Shown here: positions 2,969 to 19,309 of the stretch, one piece after another
Layout of the letters: each line of letters opens with the position of its first letter
Numbering within the stretch: position 1 is the first letter of the stretch
Virus genome (UHGV): UHGV-1724231
Direction: 5' to 3' (one strand)
DNA from: a virus
Length of the DNA stretch: 20,096 nucleotides
Notes under the pieces: generated by a model
The model's input: only the letters and a program-made list of their open reading frames with translations
What the model was told of the DNA's origin: nothing
Database searches by the model: none
Made by a program: the position numbers and the translations under genes

Positions 2969-3376
2969 ATGAAGACTGAAACAAAACATATTAATGGTAA
3001 GAAGGTGACAATTATCCTTCTTGGTGCAAGAGATGGTATCAAAATTTCTATGAAGCTTGGTAAGGTCGTTGTACCCACCTTTGCTCAGATGATTACCAGT
3101 CTTGCTGGTAAAGATGAGAATCCAGAAGCTCCTAAAGTTCCTTTCAAAGAACTGGTAGAAGCTTGCTTTGACAGAATTGATGAGTTAGATATTGACTCAA
3201 TGGCAGAATTACTATTTCAGGGGGCAACTGTTGATGACTTCCCACTGAAAATTGATAGTTACTTCCAAGCAAACTACGGTGAATTTATTGACTTCTTAGC
3301 CTTTGCTTTGGAGGCAAACTTCGGAAGTTTTTTCGAGGCAAGCATTTTCAAAAGCCTAACTTCTCAGGAAGCTTAA
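2969..3376 (+). CDS. Tail assembly chaperone (G-like, upstream frame)
   Basis: 135-aa acidic ORF between tube and tape measure genes; contains in-frame T_TTT_TTC slippery heptamer near its 3' end. Confidence 0.6.
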   Translation: MKTETKHINGKKVTIILLGARDGIKISMKLGKVVVPTFAQMITSLAGKDENPEAPKVPFKELVEACFDRIDELDIDSMAELLFQGATVDDFPLKIDSYFQANYGEFIDFLAFALEANFGSFFEASIFKSLTSQEA

Positions 3377-3612
3377 AGTATGTTATGCAGACCCCGCTGA
3401 CTGACGGGGCTGTAGAATCAACTTATGAAGAAGCAGATGAGATGAAATTTGTGCTTGCCATTTATGGAATGGAAGGGTGTAAAGAAACACTCGACCAACT
3501 TTTCTCAATGACTTTCGTTGACCTATTATCTCTTCGTCAATATCTGGAAATCCAGAAGTCATACAAAGAAGAAATGGCCTATAACGAACTCAGAAAGGCA
3601 GGTAAAATTTAA
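3328..3612 (+). CDS. Tail assembly chaperone -1 frameshift extension (GT-like product; listed ORF 3385..3612)
   Basis: -1 frame is open from the slippery site at 3328-3334 through the 75-aa ORF to TAA at 3610-3612, which overlaps the ATG of the tape measure gene. Confidence 0.5.
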   Translation, partial: FFRGKHFQKPNFSGSLKYVMQTPLTDGAVESTYEEADEMKFVLAIYGMEGCKETLDQLFSMTFVDLLSLRQYLEIQKSYKEEMAYNELRKAGKI

Positions 3613-5846
3613 TGGCACAGTATACAGTTGATAGTTTTATTGTGGAACTTGGATTCAGTGAAAAGGTTGTAAAAGGTTTACAGAGAGTTGAAAAGATGGC
3701 TATGCAATCTGCTCAACGCATCGAAAGAAACATTAACAAAGCCTTTGACGTGAAGCCTAATAAAAGTTCTCAAGAAGCTCTAAACAGACTTGTTAAAAAC
3801 GCTCAGACTGCTTCGGGCAGAATCAATAAATCCCTAAACAACGCTCTCAATTTAGATTCTCAAGGTGTTAAATCTCTACGTAAATTAGAGACACAAGGGA
3901 AGAAGACAGCCAAAGAAATTAATAAGGCTCTAAGACAAGCTATGAACGTTGACGGTAAAGTTAATATTCGTGGTGGTGCTGGTAGAGGTCGTGGGAATAC
4001 CGTTCCCCCAATGGGTGGAGGTTCACCAAGAGTTAGACCTGATATTGCTCAGAGACAAATGGAAAGGATGTTTAATAACAACTTCTACTCTGGTCTTACT
4101 CGTCGTCTTGAAACTATTGGTGGACAGGGTAACCAAATGGCTGCTTCTTTCAGAGGCAACTTGCAAGGAATCTATAACAAGTATAAAGGGAGTGGTAAGG
4201 TTGGTGAATATGAGATGGAAGTTAAAAAACTCATTGACACAACCAAACGTTGGGTTATTGCAGAAAATGCTAGAATCAAGGCAGTCAAAGAATCAGCTTG
4301 GCTACAGGATAGAGCAAACTCTTCACTAAGACAGTTAATTGGTGGTTTTGTTTCTGCCTATGCTTTGTTAGAATTAGCTCAGAAGACCATTGATGCAGGT
4401 GTTAAAAGACAGTCTGCACAGTTAGCCTCTACAGCTATCTTTGGAGCAGATACACAGCAAGCTAGAATGTTCGCTGCTACATTCTCTCACCAGATTGGTC
4501 AGAACTACACAGACACTATGAAGCAGTACTCAAACTTTGCTGCTGGTGCTCAACCTGCACTTGGTTTCAAAGGTACTCAGGAGTTCTATAAGAACGCTGC
4601 AATGTTCTCTCGTATTAGAGGGGCATCTGATGAAGACTTGAAAGGTATCATGGTTGCTTTCCAGCAAATGGCATCTAAGGGTAAAGTTCAGGCTGAAGAA
4701 CTTCGTGGTCAGTTAGGTGACCGTTTGGCAGGTGCTGTTCAGTTGTTCTCTGATGCTATTGGTAAGACTCCACAAGAACTTGATAAGTTGATGCAGGATG
4801 GTAAGCTACTTGCTAAAGACGTTCTTCCAAAAGTCTCTGAGAAGATGAGAGAATTGGTTGACGCAGCAGGTGGTATGAATGCTGTATCTAAGCAGACTGC
4901 TACATCAATGGGTCAAGCAAAAGCTATGTGGGATAACACCTTAGTGGCTCTCTTCAACAACTCTAGTGATGGTATCTCACAGTTGTCTAACTCCGTTGCA
5001 ATGTTCTTGCAAGGTTCCCTTGGGACTACTGAAGCTCTTGGTACTGGTATTGGCTACCTGTTAAAAGGTGCTAGTAACCTTCTGGACTTCATCACAGATA
5101 TCATGTATCGAATCTCTGGACTGTACTACCTAGCAATGGGATATTACAGTGATTTAGGTGCAAGTCAACAGAAACTTATCAAGGAATCTGCTGAGTTAGT
5201 TGCAACGTTTACTGCTATCGGTGTTGCAATTGCAGCTATCACGAAAGTTGCTAAAATCTTCGGTGGTACTGTAGCATTTGTCAAGAGTATTTTTGAAGAA
5301 GGTATCTTGGCTAAGATTGCTCAAAAGCTTGGTCTGACAACCGCAGCAGAGACAGTAGCTACAACGGCTGGTGTAACAGGAACTAGAATGGCTCTTGGTG
5401 TAGGTGGTTCTGCACTTATGCTTTCAAGTTCGGCTGACCCAAATGCTGGGAAGAGATTTAGTGATGTTAATACACCAAACCCTTTCAACGAAGCTATTGC
5501 TGGGGTTACCAATGCTAAACGTCCGATGTTCTTTGACCAAAATGGACAGTTGAGGTTCGCACAATATACCACTGACACTTCTGGAAATATTCAGAGAGTG
5601 GATAATGGATTGTCAAATTGGGATATCATCATGAACAACCTGTCTGAGTCTTTAAACAACTTTGCAACTAAGTTTAACCAGACACCAATGATGATGAGTC
5701 CGTCTGGATTCCCATTACAAACTAAGCAGACGCTTAATGTTTCCTTTAATCTGGATGGTAAGCAGATTGCTAATAAAATGGTGGATATCACTAATAAGAG
5801 TCAGGAAGATATTCTGTTAAGTTCTAGCTACCCAGAGGATGAATAA
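3612..5846 (+). CDS. Tail tape measure protein
   Basis: 744-aa ORF, largest in the tail module, Ala/Gln/Lys-rich with Gly-rich segment ([17 protein letters not shown]) and hydrophobic C-terminal segments; immediately after the chaperone pair. Confidence 0.75.
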
Positions 5847-12865: not shown

Positions 12866-15241
12866 ATGGCTGAATATAAGCTAAGTGAGCTAAACAGTAT
12901 TGACACAGTTCGCTCAGAAGATTTACTTCACCTAAGAGTTATCAAAAGGTCTGATATGCTTGGTGATGAAGACCGTAAAATGACCTATGCAAATTTCCTT
13001 GCCTCTTTCAAACTAGAAAGATTCTTACAACTAACTGGTGGAGATATGGTAGGGAATCTTGGCATCGTTAAATTAAGATACGGTGGAAAAGACTTATTAG
13101 ACCCAACAGGTTCTTCTGAGGTTATTCTTGGTGATACTGCCAAAACCTTTAGAATTAATGCGAGTGCTTTAAGATTAACTGTAAACGATGCCACAAGGTC
13201 TGCAACAGTTTATCACACACTTAATAAACCATCTCCTAATGAATTAGGTATGAGAACTAATACTGAAAATGATACAAGATATGCTATGAAGGAAACTGAA
13301 AATACTTTCTTGGCAAGACAAATCATTAATATCAACGGTGTTGGTCTAACACTTAAAAGCATCTTACCAGATGGTGGAGCATATATTGAAGCAAGGGATT
13401 CAAATAATGCTTTAAGATTCACAGTTGGTAACTTGACTTCTAGTACTGATGTTACATTAGTTAATAGTAAGGGTGCTACGTTGACTCTTGGCACAAACTC
13501 TGTTAGTGTTGATAAGAATTTTGAAATCAATGGTCAGGTTCAGCCTAATAACTGGAATAACCTTGATGCAAGATTCTTTACACAGACTGCTGCTGACCAG
13601 AGATTTGCAAAACTTAATGCAAGTAATAACTTTATTGGGGTTAACAACTTCAATGGTAAGACTTATGTTATTGCAGATAGTAATGCACTTAACTTAAGAG
13701 CGGTTACAGAGAATGCTGCATTATTTATGCGTGGTTATAACAGTGCTGGGACAGGAACTTGGTATGTAGGTCAGCCAGATGGTACACAGTCTGAGATTGT
13801 TTTAGCAAACCAGATGACAAATGTTAACTTGAAAATTGCTACAGAGTTTTCATTTAACAAAGCTATCAATGTAGCTGGTCAGGTAAAACCAAGTGACTTT
13901 TCTAACTTTGATACAAGATATGTTCCAAGCTCTTTGACGAACGTTCTTGCAAGAACTAATGCTGCAAACGTTTTTACTAGTCCACAGACTATCAATACTG
14001 ACAGCGACAATCCTTTTAGACTACAGGCAACAGCACAAGACTCTGGAATCTACATGTCTGCACATAATGCTAATGGGAGCAGGAGATGGTGGTTGGGTAT
14101 TGGTGATGCTGGTCAAAACAATGTGGTACTTAACAATGATGTAACAGGAAAGGCAATCAATATTGGTACTGATTTAGATGTGAATACACATGTGAATATT
14201 GTTGGACAAGTAAGACCAAGCGATTGGTCAAACTTTGACTCAAGATACTACACACAATCTGCTTCAAACTCAAGATATATGTTGTCTGGTGTATCTGGAA
14301 CGGGAACAGAAGTTGGTGATACAACAGGTATTGCTTGGAATTCAAAAACAGGTTTGTACAGTGTTACAAATTCAACTGGTGGGTCTACTCACTTAGTTTA
14401 CCAAATGTACCTTGGAGTTGGTGCATCTACACCGACTGCACAGTTTAAATTTAACTACAAGAATACTGGAATCTATTATAGAACAGCAAGGGATGGATTT
14501 GGTTTTGAAGAGGTTTGGGCTAAAATCTACACAGACCAAGACAAACCTACACCCTCTGAACTTGGTGCTTACACCAAGGCTGAAGTAGACCAACGTATTG
14601 CTTCCGCTGTAACTGATGCTACAGACCTTAAGAAAGTGTATCCAGTTGGTATTGTGACGTTCTTTGCTTCTAATGTCAACCCAAATACAGCTTTCCCAGG
14701 CACTACTTGGACTTACTTAACTGAGGGTGCAAACAGAACTATTAGGATTGGTTCTGAAAATGGCTCTGATGTGAAAGGTCTTGGTGGTGCTGATACGGTT
14801 GCATTAAGTGTTGGTCACATCCCTGCACACACTCACGGCTTCTCTGGGACAACTTCTTGGTTTGACTATGGAACTAAGTACACAGATGGTCAGGGTGCTC
14901 ACGACCATGACAGAGGTAATATGGAAATCTCTGGTAACTTTGGATGGTTTAGAAGTGATAATAACTCGTTCTACGTTGCAGACGGTGCTTTTGCAATGAG
15001 TGGTAGCCAAGGTGGGCATAGCTGGACAGGTTCTAACTTCACTTATGGTGCGCCAGTTAACTTCTATGCTTCCAGAACTTGGACAGGTAGAACAAGTTGG
15101 GTAGGTGCTCATGCCCACGGTGTAGGTATTGGTGGACACAACCACACATTCAGTGGTGACACTGGTGCGACTGGTTCTGGTGCAGCATTCAGTGTTCTTA
15201 ACACTTACATTAAACTAATGGCTTGGGTAAGAACTGCATAA
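12866..15241 (+). CDS. Tail fibre protein (large, receptor-binding candidate)
   Basis: 791-aa ORF with AAGAGGA RBS; about four tandem ~110-aa repeat modules; His-rich C-terminal tip (HIPAHTHG, AHDHD, AHAHG, GHNHT). Confidence 0.7.
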   Translation: MAEYKLSELNSIDTVRSEDLLHLRVIKRSDMLGDEDRKMTYANFLASFKLERFLQLTGGDMVGNLGIVKLRYGGKDLLDPTGSSEVILGDTAKTFRINASALRLTVNDATRSATVYHTLNKPSPNELGMRTNTENDTRYAMKETENTFLARQIININGVGLTLKSILPDGGAYIEARDSNNALRFTVGNLTSSTDVTLVNSKGATLTLGTNSVSVDKNFEINGQVQPNNWNNLDARFFTQTAADQRFAKLNASNNFIGVNNFNGKTYVIADSNALNLRAVTENAALFMRGYNSAGTGTWYVGQPDGTQSEIVLANQMTNVNLKIATEFSFNKAINVAGQVKPSDFSNFDTRYVPSSLTNVLARTNAANVFTSPQTINTDSDNPFRLQATAQDSGIYMSAHNANGSRRWWLGIGDAGQNNVVLNNDVTGKAINIGTDLDVNTHVNIVGQVRPSDWSNFDSRYYTQSASNSRYMLSGVSGTGTEVGDTTGIAWNSKTGLYSVTNSTGGSTHLVYQMYLGVGASTPTAQFKFNYKNTGIYYRTARDGFGFEEVWAKIYTDQDKPTPSELGAYTKAEVDQRIASAVTDATDLKKVYPVGIVTFFASNVNPNTAFPGTTWTYLTEGANRTIRIGSENGSDVKGLGGADTVALSVGHIPAHTHGFSGTTSWFDYGTKYTDGQGAHDHDRGNMEISGNFGWFRSDNNSFYVADGAFAMSGSQGGHSWTGSNFTYGAPVNFYASRTWTGRTSWVGAHAHGVGIGGHNHTFSGDTGATGSGAAFSVLNTYIKLMAWVRTA

Positions 15242-15249
15242 TTACCTTA

Positions 15250-15278
15250 TTGACTAACTGTCAAGATGGTGTTAATAT
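15250..15278 (+). promoter_or_regulatory. Sigma70-like promoter (TTGACT-N17-TAATAT)
   Basis: -35 TTGACT at 15250-15255, 17-nt spacer, -10 TAATAT at 15273-15278; lies in the gap after the fibre gene, about 50 nt upstream of ATG 15328. Confidence 0.5.
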
Positions 15279-15327
15279 TTCTTAGTAGGTATTCTCACCA
15301 TCTTGGCTCAAGAAGTAAGGTGATTAA

Positions 15328-15522
15328 ATGCCAACCATTCTAGCAATCCTCTTGAAAAATCTTGGGGCATTCTTCTGGAAGCTTCTACTTTCTCTTCTTA
15401 GCGAATATATGATTGAAAAAGTGTTCTTCAAGCTTGCAAGATACCTTGCGAGTAAAACAGACACACCTATTGATGATGAATTTGTAGATACCTTGGAAAA
15501 GGCTTTTAAGGGTGAAAAATAA
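15328..15522 (+). CDS. Small hydrophobic/amphipathic protein (holin- or membrane-associated candidate)
   Basis: 64-aa ORF with a hydrophobic N-terminal half (ILAILLKNLGAFFWKLLLSLL) and charged C-terminus; AAGG RBS; stop overlaps the next start. Confidence 0.45.
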   Translation: MPTILAILLKNLGAFFWKLLLSLLSEYMIEKVFFKLARYLASKTDTPIDDEFVDTLEKAFKGEK

Positions 15523-15896
15523 TGAAGTGGATTGAAGAGGCTTTTAAGAACAACATTGGTGCAATTGTTGTAGGTATTTTCAGTGTAATTGGTATGTACA
15601 CTACGATGCAGGTCTCTGATGGAAAGCAAGAAGTTTCTATAAACACAAAGTTACAACAGTTGGATGGTTACTCAAAAGGTAACTATTCAGCTATTCGTGA
15701 TTTACAGTCTGATATGAAACTCCTTCAGTTAGGGATGGAGAACCAGAAAGTGCAGCTAGAGAACGTTAAAGGGGAAAACGCTAAGTTGACCAAAACCCTT
15801 GATAAATTCTCAGATAGTGTGAACAACTTAGCACAGTCTGTATCAGCTTTACAAGCAATTACCGAACAAAATACACAGAATGCTAAAAAGAAATAA
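15522..15896 (+). CDS. Membrane-anchored coiled-coil protein (i-spanin-like candidate)
   Basis: 124-aa ORF with one N-terminal transmembrane segment (IGAIVVGIFSVIGMY) followed by a heptad-like Q/L/K/E-rich region; followed by a terminator. Confidence 0.45.
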   Translation: MKWIEEAFKNNIGAIVVGIFSVIGMYTTMQVSDGKQEVSINTKLQQLDGYSKGNYSAIRDLQSDMKLLQLGMENQKVQLENVKGENAKLTKTLDKFSDSVNNLAQSVSALQAITEQNTQNAKKK

Positions 15897-15900
15897 TGCT

Positions 15901-15928
15901 AAGGCTCCCGTAAAAAGGAGCCTTTTTT
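15901..15928. terminator. Bidirectional rho-independent terminator between convergent transcription units
   Basis: AAGGCTCC-loop-GGAGCCTT stem followed by TTTTTT on + strand; on the - strand the same hairpin lies just 3' of the thymidylate synthase stop and is followed by a U-rich tract. Confidence 0.7.
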
Positions 15929-15932
15929 GTAT

Positions 15933-16832
15933 CTACTTACCTACTGACAATGGAGCTTCAATCTTACCAGCATGTCGGTAATCTTTCAAGCCACCTATAA
16001 AGTCACTTGCTGTTAAGTGCTTCAGGTCACCAATACTGTTTAACTCAATATCAATATCAAACTTCGGTGCTGGGAACTCTTCGTTACCTAACAACTGATA
16101 GACTTGCTGCATATGGTTCAGGTAAATCTGGGTATCACCAAAAGTACCAACCAGATAACGTGGAGTTAAACCTGTCATCTTACAAAGCACATGTAGGATA
16201 AACCCATAAGATGCAATATTAAAGGGCAAACCTAAAAATGTGTCGCATGAACGCTGATACCATTTCAAGTCAACCTCTCCAGTATTCGAGATATAAATCT
16301 GGAAAAGTACATGACAAGGGGCTAATGCCATAGAGTTGCTTGAGATATCTGCTGCATTCCATGCGTTAACCAGCATGTAACGGTCTGTAGGAGACTTTTT
16401 CATCTTATCCACAAGATTACTCAACTGGTCAACGACAACCCCACCATGCCCCTCAAAAGCCCTCCATTGGACACCATAGATTCGTCCACCTGCATCTTCC
16501 AACCAATCATTTTCAGTTGCATAGGTTGTCTTTAACCAACGTTCAAAATCATCTGTCCAGATAGTCCAACGCTCTCCATCGTTCTCTCCCCAAGTTCTGT
16601 AACGTAAATCACCCAACTTGTTTTCACCATTCAAAAACCACAATGCTTCACCTAAAACTTGACGCATGAAGGTTTGCTTTGAAGTGATTAATGGGAAACC
16701 ACTACGCATGTCAAAACGAAACTCTGGAGGTGCAAACGTTGTAACAACCTTTCCAGTTCTTGTTTTACGTTCTTCCCCAACAGAAAGAACATGGTTGAGA
16801 ATCCCTTTGTAACTTATATCTGCTTGTGACAT
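15933..16832 (-). CDS. thyA: Thymidylate synthase (ThyA family)
   Basis: 299-aa ORF with ThyA hallmark motifs: RTG…GFPL(I/V)T(S/T)K, ALAPCH (catalytic Cys), YQRSCD-FLGLPFNIASY (Asn in FNIAS indicates dUMP specificity); AGAGGA RBS. Confidence 0.85.
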   Translation of the reverse strand: MSQADISYKGILNHVLSVGEERKTRTGKVVTTFAPPEFRFDMRSGFPLITSKQTFMRQVLGEALWFLNGENKLGDLRYRTWGENDGERWTIWTDDFERWLKTTYATENDWLEDAGGRIYGVQWRAFEGHGGVVVDQLSNLVDKMKKSPTDRYMLVNAWNAADISSNSMALAPCHVLFQIYISNTGEVDLKWYQRSCDTFLGLPFNIASYGFILHVLCKMTGLTPRYLVGTFGDTQIYLNHMQQVYQLLGNEEFPAPKFDIDIELNSIGDLKHLTASDFIGGLKDYRHAGKIEAPLSVGK

Positions 16833-16833
16833 A

Positions 16834-17379
16834 TTAGAAACGTCCTCTTACTTGTGGAACATAAATGTTGAATACAACGCTGTCATCTTTCGATGGTTTT
16901 GACTGTATTCTAGCAAAAGTTGACTCATCATACAAGTACTCAAAGAAACCCTTATAAGGCAGCTTAACAGTTGCTTCTTCAGTCACTTCACGGATATATG
17001 TTTGACAAATTGCATCTGCATATGGTAAAGCTTGGATAAGAATACCTGCTCCACCAATTATACAAACATCTTGCTCAATACTACTATCCAGATGTTTTAA
17101 GAATGCCCCAAAAGCGTCTGGGTGAACCTTAGCAAACATTACATCTTCTCTACCAAAATCTATACCTTCATACGGTAATGAGTTTGTCAGAACAAGATTA
17201 TCACGGTCTGGTAAAGGTTTACTTCCAAGACTCTTGAAAGTGTCATTACCCATAACTACCAATTGACCTGTAGTAATCCTCTTGAACTCTTGCATATCTT
17301 GCTTATTACGAGGCCAAGGCATACCAGAGGGGCAACCAAACTCCCCGTTAATACCGTTTGCAAAAACCAATTTAATCAT
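16834..17379 (-). CDS. folA: Dihydrofolate reductase
   Basis: 181-aa ORF with DHFR-like motifs (GMPWP near N-terminus, LVVMGNDTFKSLG, PLPDRDNLVLT, CIIGGAGI); 1-nt gap to thyA, matching the known frd-td pairing in large lytic phages. Confidence 0.75.
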   Translation of the reverse strand: MIKLVFANGINGEFGCPSGMPWPRNKQDMQEFKRITTGQLVVMGNDTFKSLGSKPLPDRDNLVLTNSLPYEGIDFGREDVMFAKVHPDAFGAFLKHLDSSIEQDVCIIGGAGILIQALPYADAICQTYIREVTEEATVKLPYKGFFEYLYDESTFARIQSKPSKDDSVVFNIYVPQVRGRF

Positions 17380-17648
17380 TGTGTGAACCCTTTTACAATA
17401 AACCAGTTAGCAATATTCTTCACAGTTTTTACTGGATGGAATACTAAGCGTGGTTGTGGTTGATAACTGCCATAAGCCCAGAAAGAGATGATGTTGTCAC
17501 AATCAGTGCAACGTGTGTACTCTTCTGCTACGTTCCCTGCCACAATCTCTGTAATCTCACCTTGGAAATTTGTACCCCCACAATGGGGGCATTTTAGAGG
17601 TTCACCATCTTGGTTGTAGCATTGCTCAAACTTCTCAAAAAGTTTCAC
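17376..17648 (-). CDS. Small zinc-ribbon protein, unknown function
   Basis: 90-aa ORF with CPHCGG…CTDCD (two CxxC pairs); GTG start with AAGGT RBS; stop overlaps the folA start (ATGA). Confidence 0.5.
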   Translation of the reverse strand: MKLFEKFEQCYNQDGEPLKCPHCGGTNFQGEITEIVAGNVAEEYTRCTDCDNIISFWAYGSYQPQPRLVFHPVKTVKNIANWFIVKGFTQ

Positions 17649-18663: not shown

Positions 18664-19013
18664 TTAATATCCTCATTTTTAAAGGTGAACGTGGTGTAGT
18701 TAGTCCCGTCAACATTTAGCCAGATAGCCTTAACAGATACACCATCAATATTGCCAAACAGTTCTTTGATGAACTTGTTACGAACATCATGAGCACAAGT
18801 TGTCTCAAGCTTAATGTTAGAGATAGCGGAGCCAATTGTCATATAACCAGCAATACGACTCTTCTCAGTATGCTTGATTCTTCCTTCTTGATACATCTGC
18901 TTCAGGACTCCCAAGAGTTCTTCACCAAATGACTTCTCAGCACTCGTCGGTTTCCCGTAGAAACCAAGTGCAAAGTTGTCGTTGAAAATTGCATTCTTAC
19001 GTTTCATAATCAA
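18648..19013 (-). CDS. Hypothetical protein
   Basis: 121-aa ORF in the same coupled operon. Confidence 0.5.
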   Translation of the reverse strand: MIMKRKNAIFNDNFALGFYGKPTSAEKSFGEELLGVLKQMYQEGRIKHTEKSRIAGYMTIGSAISNIKLETTCAHDVRNKFIKELFGNIDGVSVKAIWLNVDGTNYTTFTFKNEDIKCLFP

Positions 19014-19309
19014 TCTGCCTTACTTAAGTTGAAGTTTAAACCAAGTTTATCACAAATACTAATCATGTAGTCAAGCGAAACTTTACCGCTACCGTTTAAG
19101 ATGTTTGAAACTCTTGCTTGAGAAATCTCACAAATCTTTGCTACCTGAACTTGTGATAGATTGTTTCTTTTCATGTGAATGTGGAGTTTCTCAGAGATAT
19201 AGAACTTCATCTCATCCACATCCATTCCAGCTATGTATGTTTCCATTTCAGACTCTCTATCAGCCTCCCAAGAATCTTGAGGTGCATAAGGGTCGAAGAC
19301 TTTATTCAT
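19010..19309 (-). CDS. HTH (XRE/Cro-C1-type) DNA-binding protein with acidic N-terminal extension
   Basis: 99-aa ORF; C-terminal helix-turn-helix signature LSQVQVAKICEISQARVSNILNG; ATGA overlap with the downstream gene. Confidence 0.6.
   Translation of the reverse strand: MNKVFDPYAPQDSWEADRESEMETYIAGMDVDEMKFYISEKLHIHMKRNNLSQVQVAKICEISQARVSNILNGSGKVSLDYMISICDKLGLNFNLSKAD

Follow-up and report, generated by a model that had tools for sequence, protein, structure and literature searches.

In phage Felix O1, the td and frd genes (ORF80 and ORF81), encoding a thymidylate synthase (TS) and a dihydrofolate reductase (DHFR), are separated by 1 nt, and the same pair has been annotated in dozens of relatives. 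In T4, the frd and td genes sit between gene 32 and nrdA, not by the fibre genes. A T5-like phage has the order nrdA-nrdB-DHFR-TS, with DHFR adjoining TS. Phage dUMP hydroxymethylases belong to the same superfamily as TS. Among them, SPO1 gp29 is annotated as a dUMP hydroxymethylase, and we picked M6 gp58 and ViI Vi01_060c as TS homologues adjoining genes of 5-hmU DNA kinases, the latter (M6 gp54 and ViI gp67) having been demonstrated experimentally (PMC8989533; PMC5889632). The hydroxymethylase reaction releases tetrahydrofolate and that of TS dihydrofolate, an argument that has been used in Spounavirinae to tell TS-type genes from hydroxymethylase-type ones (PMC4528723).

Here, we analysed a stretch of 20,096 nucleotides from the virus genome UHGV-1724231 (the window), which encodes a TS and a DHFR. 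This pair is very probably the thymidylate cycle module (frd-td) of a myophage of the Ounavirinae (Felix O1/Moogle-like), making dTMP. As such, it would confirm the usual dTMP self-sufficiency module in this phage, which matters little in itself.

Gene pair and DHFR

The two reading frames are present exactly as the original prediction described them, both in the list of open reading frames and by their matches to PF00186 and PF00303. The DHFR gene, of the frd/folA type, encodes 181 aa (16834..17379, minus strand; PF00186, phrog_316). The TS gene, a td gene of the ThyA type, is intron-free and encodes 299 aa (15933..16832, minus strand; PF00303, TIGR03284, phrog_160). Reading of the sequence showed that a single nucleotide separates the stop codon of DHFR (TAA, 16836-16834) from the ATG of TS at 16832, and that a Shine-Dalgarno-like AAGAGGA of the TS gene lies inside the 3'-terminal part of the DHFR gene (16843..16849, minus strand). 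On its other side, the start of DHFR overlaps by 4 nt the stop of an upstream ORF of 90 aa. A search of the window against Rfam revealed neither introns nor other RNA elements.

The 3.4 kb around frd-td showed 97.7% nucleotide identity to the Shigella phages ESh21 and ESh22 (Ounavirinae, Mooglevirus) and 78-83% identity to many Moogle-/Felix O1-like phages, whose matches were all labelled as thymidylate synthase and dihydrofolate reductase. The order td-frd after a tail fibre gene and two small ORFs is common to ESh21, Felix O1, and UAB_Phi87. Further upstream of frd, on the same strand, ESh21 and Felix O1 encode a transcriptional regulator, a DNA ligase, and a DNA polymerase, and td and frd are the final genes of this leftward replication/nucleotide operon. 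Gene layout, families, residue states, fold, synteny, and the terminator are direct observations, whereas we infer the enzymatic activities and the timing of expression of the pair as follows. TS would carry out the reductive methylation of dUMP with 5,10-methylene-tetrahydrofolate, yielding dTMP and dihydrofolate, and DHFR, whose gene directly precedes that of TS and is translationally coupled to it, would use NADPH to regenerate tetrahydrofolate. Together with the phage ribonucleotide reductases and dNMP kinase, the pair would raise the supply of dTTP for the replication of an AT-rich genome (~39% GC), being expressed from an early/middle operon.

In the case of DHFR, the protein matched PF00186 (E=2e-23, 83.3 bits; gathering threshold of 25) and the T4-type phage DHFR family phrog_316 (E=5e-50, 171 bits), and its PDB matches were bona fide DHFRs, including that of T4 (1juv, E=7e-12). 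It is 98.9% identical to the DHFR of ESh21 and 67% identical to Felix O1 frd. The residues D27, W22, F31, T46, R57, G95, G96, and T113 (E. coli numbering) are kept, and the enzyme is predicted to be catalytically intact. The best NCBIfam matches by E-value were models of trimethoprim-resistant Dfr proteins (e.g., DfrA35, 53.9 bits), as would be expected if the phage carried the gene chiefly as a resistance determinant of the Dfr family. Such a role is extremely unlikely, since all Dfr matches fell far under their cut-offs (53.9 versus 360 bits for DfrA35), PF00186 and phrog_316 fitted better, and the fixed pairing with TS points to nucleotide metabolism.

Thymidylate synthase versus dUMP hydroxymethylase

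The TS of the window matched PF00303 (E=1.1e-73), phrog_160 (E=7e-96), and the TS equivalog TIGR03284, the latter with 213.5 bits for a cut-off of 108.35. Its sequence matches in the PDB were all true TSs (6auj, 1.5e-53; E. coli, ~3e-50; T4 1tis, 1e-49). An AlphaFold2 model made from the clade alignment (pLDDT of 95.5) was superimposed with Foldseek on the E. coli TS with a TM(target) of 0.95 and an rmsd of 1.9 Å, and the top structural matches were all TSs. The MAFFT alignment (E. coli numbering hereafter) revealed the TS state at R21, E58, W80, Y94, R126, L143, C146, H147, and Q165, and also at R166, S167, D169, L172, G173, F176, N177, and Y209, all of which were invariant across the 50 sequences of the clade alignment. 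Both the catalytic cysteine of the PCH motif (C173/H174 in the protein) and the asparagine of the PFNIAS motif (N205, equivalent to N177) are thus kept, as had been proposed, and the intact nucleophile and Asn177 predict a dUMP-specific enzyme. The same asparagine separates the protein from dCMP hydroxymethylases, which are marked by an aspartate in place of Asn177; T4 gp42 has this Asp and the window TS has Asn205.

Cys nucleophile and Asn177 are also kept in the dUMP hydroxymethylases, members of the same superfamily, and the protein could in principle be one of them, supplying 5-hmdUTP or hypermodified thymidine to the phage DNA. The original prediction held that synthesis of dTMP and of hmdUMP cannot be told apart from the sequence alone, and proposed an alignment to ThyA, T4 Td, and phage hydroxymethylases. 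For this alignment, the reference set comprised T4 Td (exons joined), T4 gp42, T4 Frd, SPO1 gp29, M6 gp58, and ViI Vi01_060c. SPO1 gp29, M6 gp58, and ViI Vi01_060c, which come from three unrelated phage families and carry long unrelated C-terminal domains, share W80S, L143D, H147N, Q165N, L172W, and F176A/I. In TS, the exocyclic methylene intermediate is kept away from solvent by W80 and L143, which makes mechanistic sense of the changes seen in hydroxymethylases. Together with these two, H147, L172, and F176 count among the residues that shield this intermediate and support hydride transfer. The window TS has none of the six hydroxymethylase states, each of these discriminating positions being in the TS state, and lacks a C-terminal helical extension. 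The same applies to the six signature positions of Felix O1 td, which also keeps the other TS residues listed above.

The profile and pairwise comparisons gave the same division. Among the controls, the true TSs exceeded the TIGR03284 cut-off of 108.35 bits (T5-like TS, 276 bits; Felix O1 td, 202.5 bits), and the hydroxymethylases failed it (SPO1 gp29, 58.2; M6 gp58, 35.9; ViI Vi01_060c, 34.0; T4 gp42, 30.6 bits); the window TS passed it two-fold. In pairwise BLASTP, the window TS showed 35-46% identity (171-214 bits) to E. coli ThyA, T4 Td, and the T5-like TS, versus 19-26% identity (27-39 bits) to the hydroxymethylases. The two activities can therefore be told apart in this case, since hydroxymethylases have a distinct signature and fail TIGR03284 and the window TS has the TS states, siding with the synthases. 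In addition, since TS releases dihydrofolate and a hydroxymethylase tetrahydrofolate, a coupled DHFR is sensible only with a TS and would be pointless next to a hydroxymethylase.

The hydroxymethylase pathway was searched for with tblastn, using as queries the pathway proteins of M6, ViI, SPO1, and T4 and all four hydroxymethylases. The targets were the window, ESh21 1-50000 and 56010-86414 (93% of the genome), and Felix O1 40000-86155; the capsid/portal region of ESh21 (50001-56009, ~6 kb) and the first 40 kb of Felix O1 (1-40 kb) fell outside this scope. In these regions, none of 5-HMUDK, aGPT-Pplase, dCMP deaminase, dCTPase/dUTPase, or glucosyltransferase was found at E<=0.01, and no second TS homologue was present, only the single TS and DHFR. 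Two Felix O1 products, a dNMP kinase and a MazG-like pyrophosphatase, might conceivably contribute to a pathway of modified nucleotides. On the other hand, several restriction-modification systems were effective against the relative Bas63, a Felixounavirus characterized as "remarkably sensitive" to them (PMC8594841), which would be consistent with unmodified DNA. We note that 5-hmdU alone blocks few restriction enzymes and that this restriction-sensitivity argument is drawn from the relative Bas63. Given the alignment with SPO1 gp29, M6 gp58, ViI Vi01_060c, and T4 gp42 and the NCBIfam negative controls, the identification as a hydroxymethylase was rejected, and we consider it exceedingly improbable.

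The comparison also provides a reusable discriminator, the marks of the known dUMP hydroxymethylases being S80/D143/N147/N165/W172, a TIGR03284 score under the cut-off, and the lack of a coupled DHFR. With it, phage TS homologues could be triaged for probable thymidine modification before any bench experiment.

Some residues of the window TS depart from the canonical enzyme. The phosphate-site arginines R21, R126, and R166 are kept and R127 is changed to tyrosine, a change found in 39 of the 50 clade members. In L. casei TS, R179, which we take to be the equivalent of R127, is reportedly tolerant of substitution, and the PDB holds structures of its R179A/E/K/T mutants. Position 83 (W83) is Asp in the window TS, Asp or Asn clade-wide, and Asn in T4 Td, and H207 is changed to Gln in the Ounavirinae members of the clade only. 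The C terminus, ...APLSV-GK, exceeds the canonical end (the residue equivalent to I264) by two residues, Gly298-Lys299 (15936..15941, minus strand), the Pfam and TIGR models ending at residue 297. Endings of the type ...VG plus 0-1 residue were found in 66 of the 120 nearest database homologues, and the bacterial-type ending ...A[VI] in 51. The homologues ending in ...VG were phages wherever the source was named or the context examined, and most were metagenomic contigs.

The extra Gly-Lys and R127Y are the features of the window TS that could speak for a hydroxymethylase. Judged from the alignment, however, the extra Gly, R127Y, and W83D are clade traits and do not point toward the hydroxymethylase signature. 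The free C-terminal carboxylate of TS helps in the closure of the active site. There is a small chance that the Ounavirinae-centred TS clade, with its extra C-terminal Gly, R127Y, and W83D, has a variant active-site lid altering the closure of the ternary complex. If so, altered kinetics or antifolate sensitivity, or docking to the co-encoded DHFR, might result; the least likely outcome would be a partial loss of the methylene intermediate to water, giving some 5-hmdUMP. The clade-wide Gly extension is a small enzymological curiosity, and the sole mildly unusual feature of the protein.

The original prediction had given weight to the length of the small domain, as an insertion of ~20 aa relative to E. 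coli ThyA. This variable segment covers residues 68-119, from WFL to GVQWR (16476..16631, minus strand; delimited by comparison of spacings and by the model), and was modelled as three short helices with a pLDDT of 90-92 (AF2). The spacing from WFL to GxQWR is of 52 aa in the window TS and 31 aa in E. coli ThyA, so the excess was rightly estimated (21 aa by our measurement). However, the small domain is known to vary and that of the window TS is merely 6 aa longer than that of T4 Td (46 aa, as in the T5-like TS). The spacing is 43 aa in bacterial homologues of 279 aa, and ranges from 42 to 66 aa among the retrieved homologues. The length of the segment is ordinary variation of the TS family, with E. 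coli at the short end, and is without diagnostic weight.

Boundary with the tail fibre genes

The frd-td pair is convergent with the plus-strand structural module, as originally described, and the GC skew flips at ~15.9 kb. The last large gene of this module encodes a long tail fibre protein, gp37-like (12866..15241, plus strand; PF20744, PF12604; phrog_4277, 1287 bits). It is followed by an ORF of 64 aa (15328..15522, plus strand), labelled "holin" or "putative holin" in many relatives, and by a membrane/coiled-coil-like ORF of 124 aa (15522..15896, plus strand); the two small ORFs were jointly assigned to phrog_402/phrog_4038. Between the convergent late and early units, the terminator scan and RNA folding revealed a bidirectional intrinsic terminator hairpin (15901..15924, both strands), composed of AAGGCTCC-loop-GGAGCCTT with T runs on its flanks and called as a terminator on either strand. 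Its folding energy was -13.3 kcal/mol (z=-3.15 versus shuffled sequences). ESh21 shares the stem, and so does Felix O1, where the loop is inverted. The statement that the pair lies "directly beside" the baseplate/fibre genes is thus slightly loose, since two small plus-strand ORFs and the terminator hairpin intervene (15241 to 15933).

The conservation of this bidirectional terminator assigns frd-td and the fibre genes to two distinct transcription units that converge on it. Transcription of the early/middle replication operon, running leftward, would stop there, as would that of the tail-fibre/lysis operon coming from the other side. In Ounavirinae, the closeness of the pair to the fibre genes most plausibly marks the place where two operons meet and implies no functional link.

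The original prediction hinted at another explanation, in which DHFR and/or TS double as baseplate components and their position by the fibre genes reflects that role. For T4, such a role was claimed in the 1970s (Kozloff 1970; Mosher and Mathews 1979, as cited in PMC12484599), a claim that two papers simply restate (PMC12484599 being one of them), and the pair lies less than 700 bp from the tail fibre gene, a proximity conserved across Ounavirinae. Against this, the pair is on the opposite strand, in a replication/nucleotide operon, its own transcription unit being closed by the conserved terminator, and in T4 and a T5-like phage the frd-td genes are located away from those of the baseplate. 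The atomic models of the T4 baseplate are not known to include DHFR or TS. The virion proteome of Felix O1, obtained from gel bands and whole-phage shotgun MS, comprises 17 ORFs (ORFs 23, 36, 49, 53-55, 57-59, 63, 64, 67-69, 73, 74, and 77), neither td nor frd being among them. Neither enzyme is mentioned in the cryo-EM study of the whole Bas63 virion, baseplate included, or anywhere in the 2010 review of the T4 tail and baseplate. The proteome paper on wV8 gives no detail bearing on TS or DHFR in the virion, and td and frd are not discussed in the text of the PhageMaP study of Bas63. The proposed baseplate link did not hold up against this evidence, and we regard a structural role of either enzyme as very improbable.

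Comparison with known systems

The closest counterparts of the window pair are td/frd of Felix O1 and the orthologues in Mooglevirus and Felixounavirus (ESh21, Moogle, wV8, UAB_Phi87). Their products are likewise of 299 and 181 aa, and the genes are also 1 nt apart and occupy the same site after the tail fibre gene and the two small ORFs, with the same terminator. The window TS and DHFR show 79% and 67% amino acid identity to those of Felix O1, and 97% and 99% to those of ESh21, respectively, so the orthologues differ from the window pair solely by sequence divergence at the genus or species level.

The pair also mirrors frd-td of T4, as had been noted, with the same order and tight coupling, although the T4 genes overlap by 4 nt where the window has its 1-nt spacer. 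In both phages, the small domain of TS is enlarged relative to E. coli (46 aa in T4 Td and 52 aa in the window, versus 31 aa), and the N terminus of DHFR is of the MIKLVF... type. The proteins are ~37% (TS) and about 30% (DHFR) identical. They differ in that T4 td is interrupted by a group I intron and its product ends canonically in ...MAV, whereas the window TS gene is intron-free and its product ends in ...SVGK. More distantly, a metagenomic contig encoding a TS of the clade with 46% identity has the order RNR-DHFR-TS, DHFR lying ~2.3 kb upstream of TS.

E. coli ThyA (EC 2.1.1.45) has the same fold and the same set of catalytic residues as the window TS, at 35% identity, the latter differing by its 21-aa longer small domain, R127Y, H207Q, W83D, and the two extra C-terminal residues. 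The dUMP hydroxymethylases SPO1 gp29, M6 gp58, and ViI Vi01_060c share with the window TS the Cys nucleophile, Asn177, E58, Y94, R166, and D169. Their S80, D143, N147, N165, W172, and A/I176, and their C-terminal extensions of 80-120 aa, are absent from it. Their genes adjoin those of 5-HMUDK, dUTPase, or dCMP deaminase, hmdU-pathway genes flanking the hydroxymethylase gene in ViI and M6, and have no adjacent DHFR, unlike the TS gene of the window.

C-terminal extension of the thymidylate synthase
The thymidylate synthase (TS) extends beyond the canonical C-terminal valine by Gly-Lys (residues 298-299; 15936-15941, minus strand). An ending in VG, followed by zero or one residue, was found in 66 of the 120 nearest TS homologues, mostly phage or metagenomic, while the bacterial homologues among these 120 end in MAV. 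The substitutions R127Y and W83D (E. coli ThyA numbering) occur together in the same TS clade as the extra C-terminal glycine.

Known and presumed kinase genes of M6 and ViI
The genes M6 gp54 (41685-42248 of the retrieved M6 sequence, L006) and ViI Vi01_061c (3203-3865 of the ViI sequence, L007) are both labeled "terminase small subunit" in RefSeq. 5-Hydroxymethyluracil DNA kinase activity has been experimentally shown for M6 gp54 and ViI gp67 (PMC8989533; PMC5889632). We tentatively equated Vi01_061c with ViI gp67 by its note label, orf00067, and its position adjoining the TS homologue; if this holds, both RefSeq labels are likely mis-annotations.

Tail fibre and convergent operons
On the plus strand, the tail fibre gene (12866-15241) encodes a protein with three gp37 trimerization repeats plus the C-terminal domain of gp37; at its tip, residues 589-789 matched the Gp10 C-terminal domain weakly, below threshold. 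Two small plus-strand ORFs follow. The first (15328-15522; phrog_402) is labeled holin in many relatives, and the Felix O1 genome paper states that holin-lysin cassettes are absent; in the second (15522-15896; phrog_4038), the N-terminus is hydrophobic and the C-terminus resembles a coiled coil. A bidirectional terminator hairpin (15901-15924, both strands) separates the convergent late and early operons. Its stem sequence is kept in ESh21 and Felix O1; in the latter, the loop is inverted.

Genes upstream of DHFR
Upstream of DHFR lies a 90-aa cysteine-rich zinc-ribbon ORF (17376-17648, minus strand; phrog_2993). Its stop and the start of DHFR share 4 nt, and its Pfam similarity to the Lar restriction-alleviation protein and zinc-ribbon families was weak and sub-threshold. 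Further upstream, a 99-aa ORF (19010-19309, minus strand) carries an apparent XRE-type helix-turn-helix (...QVQVAKICEISQARVSNILNG...). Judged by position, it appears to be the counterpart of Felix O1 ORF85, which is annotated as a "transcriptional regulator" and shares an operon with frd-td.
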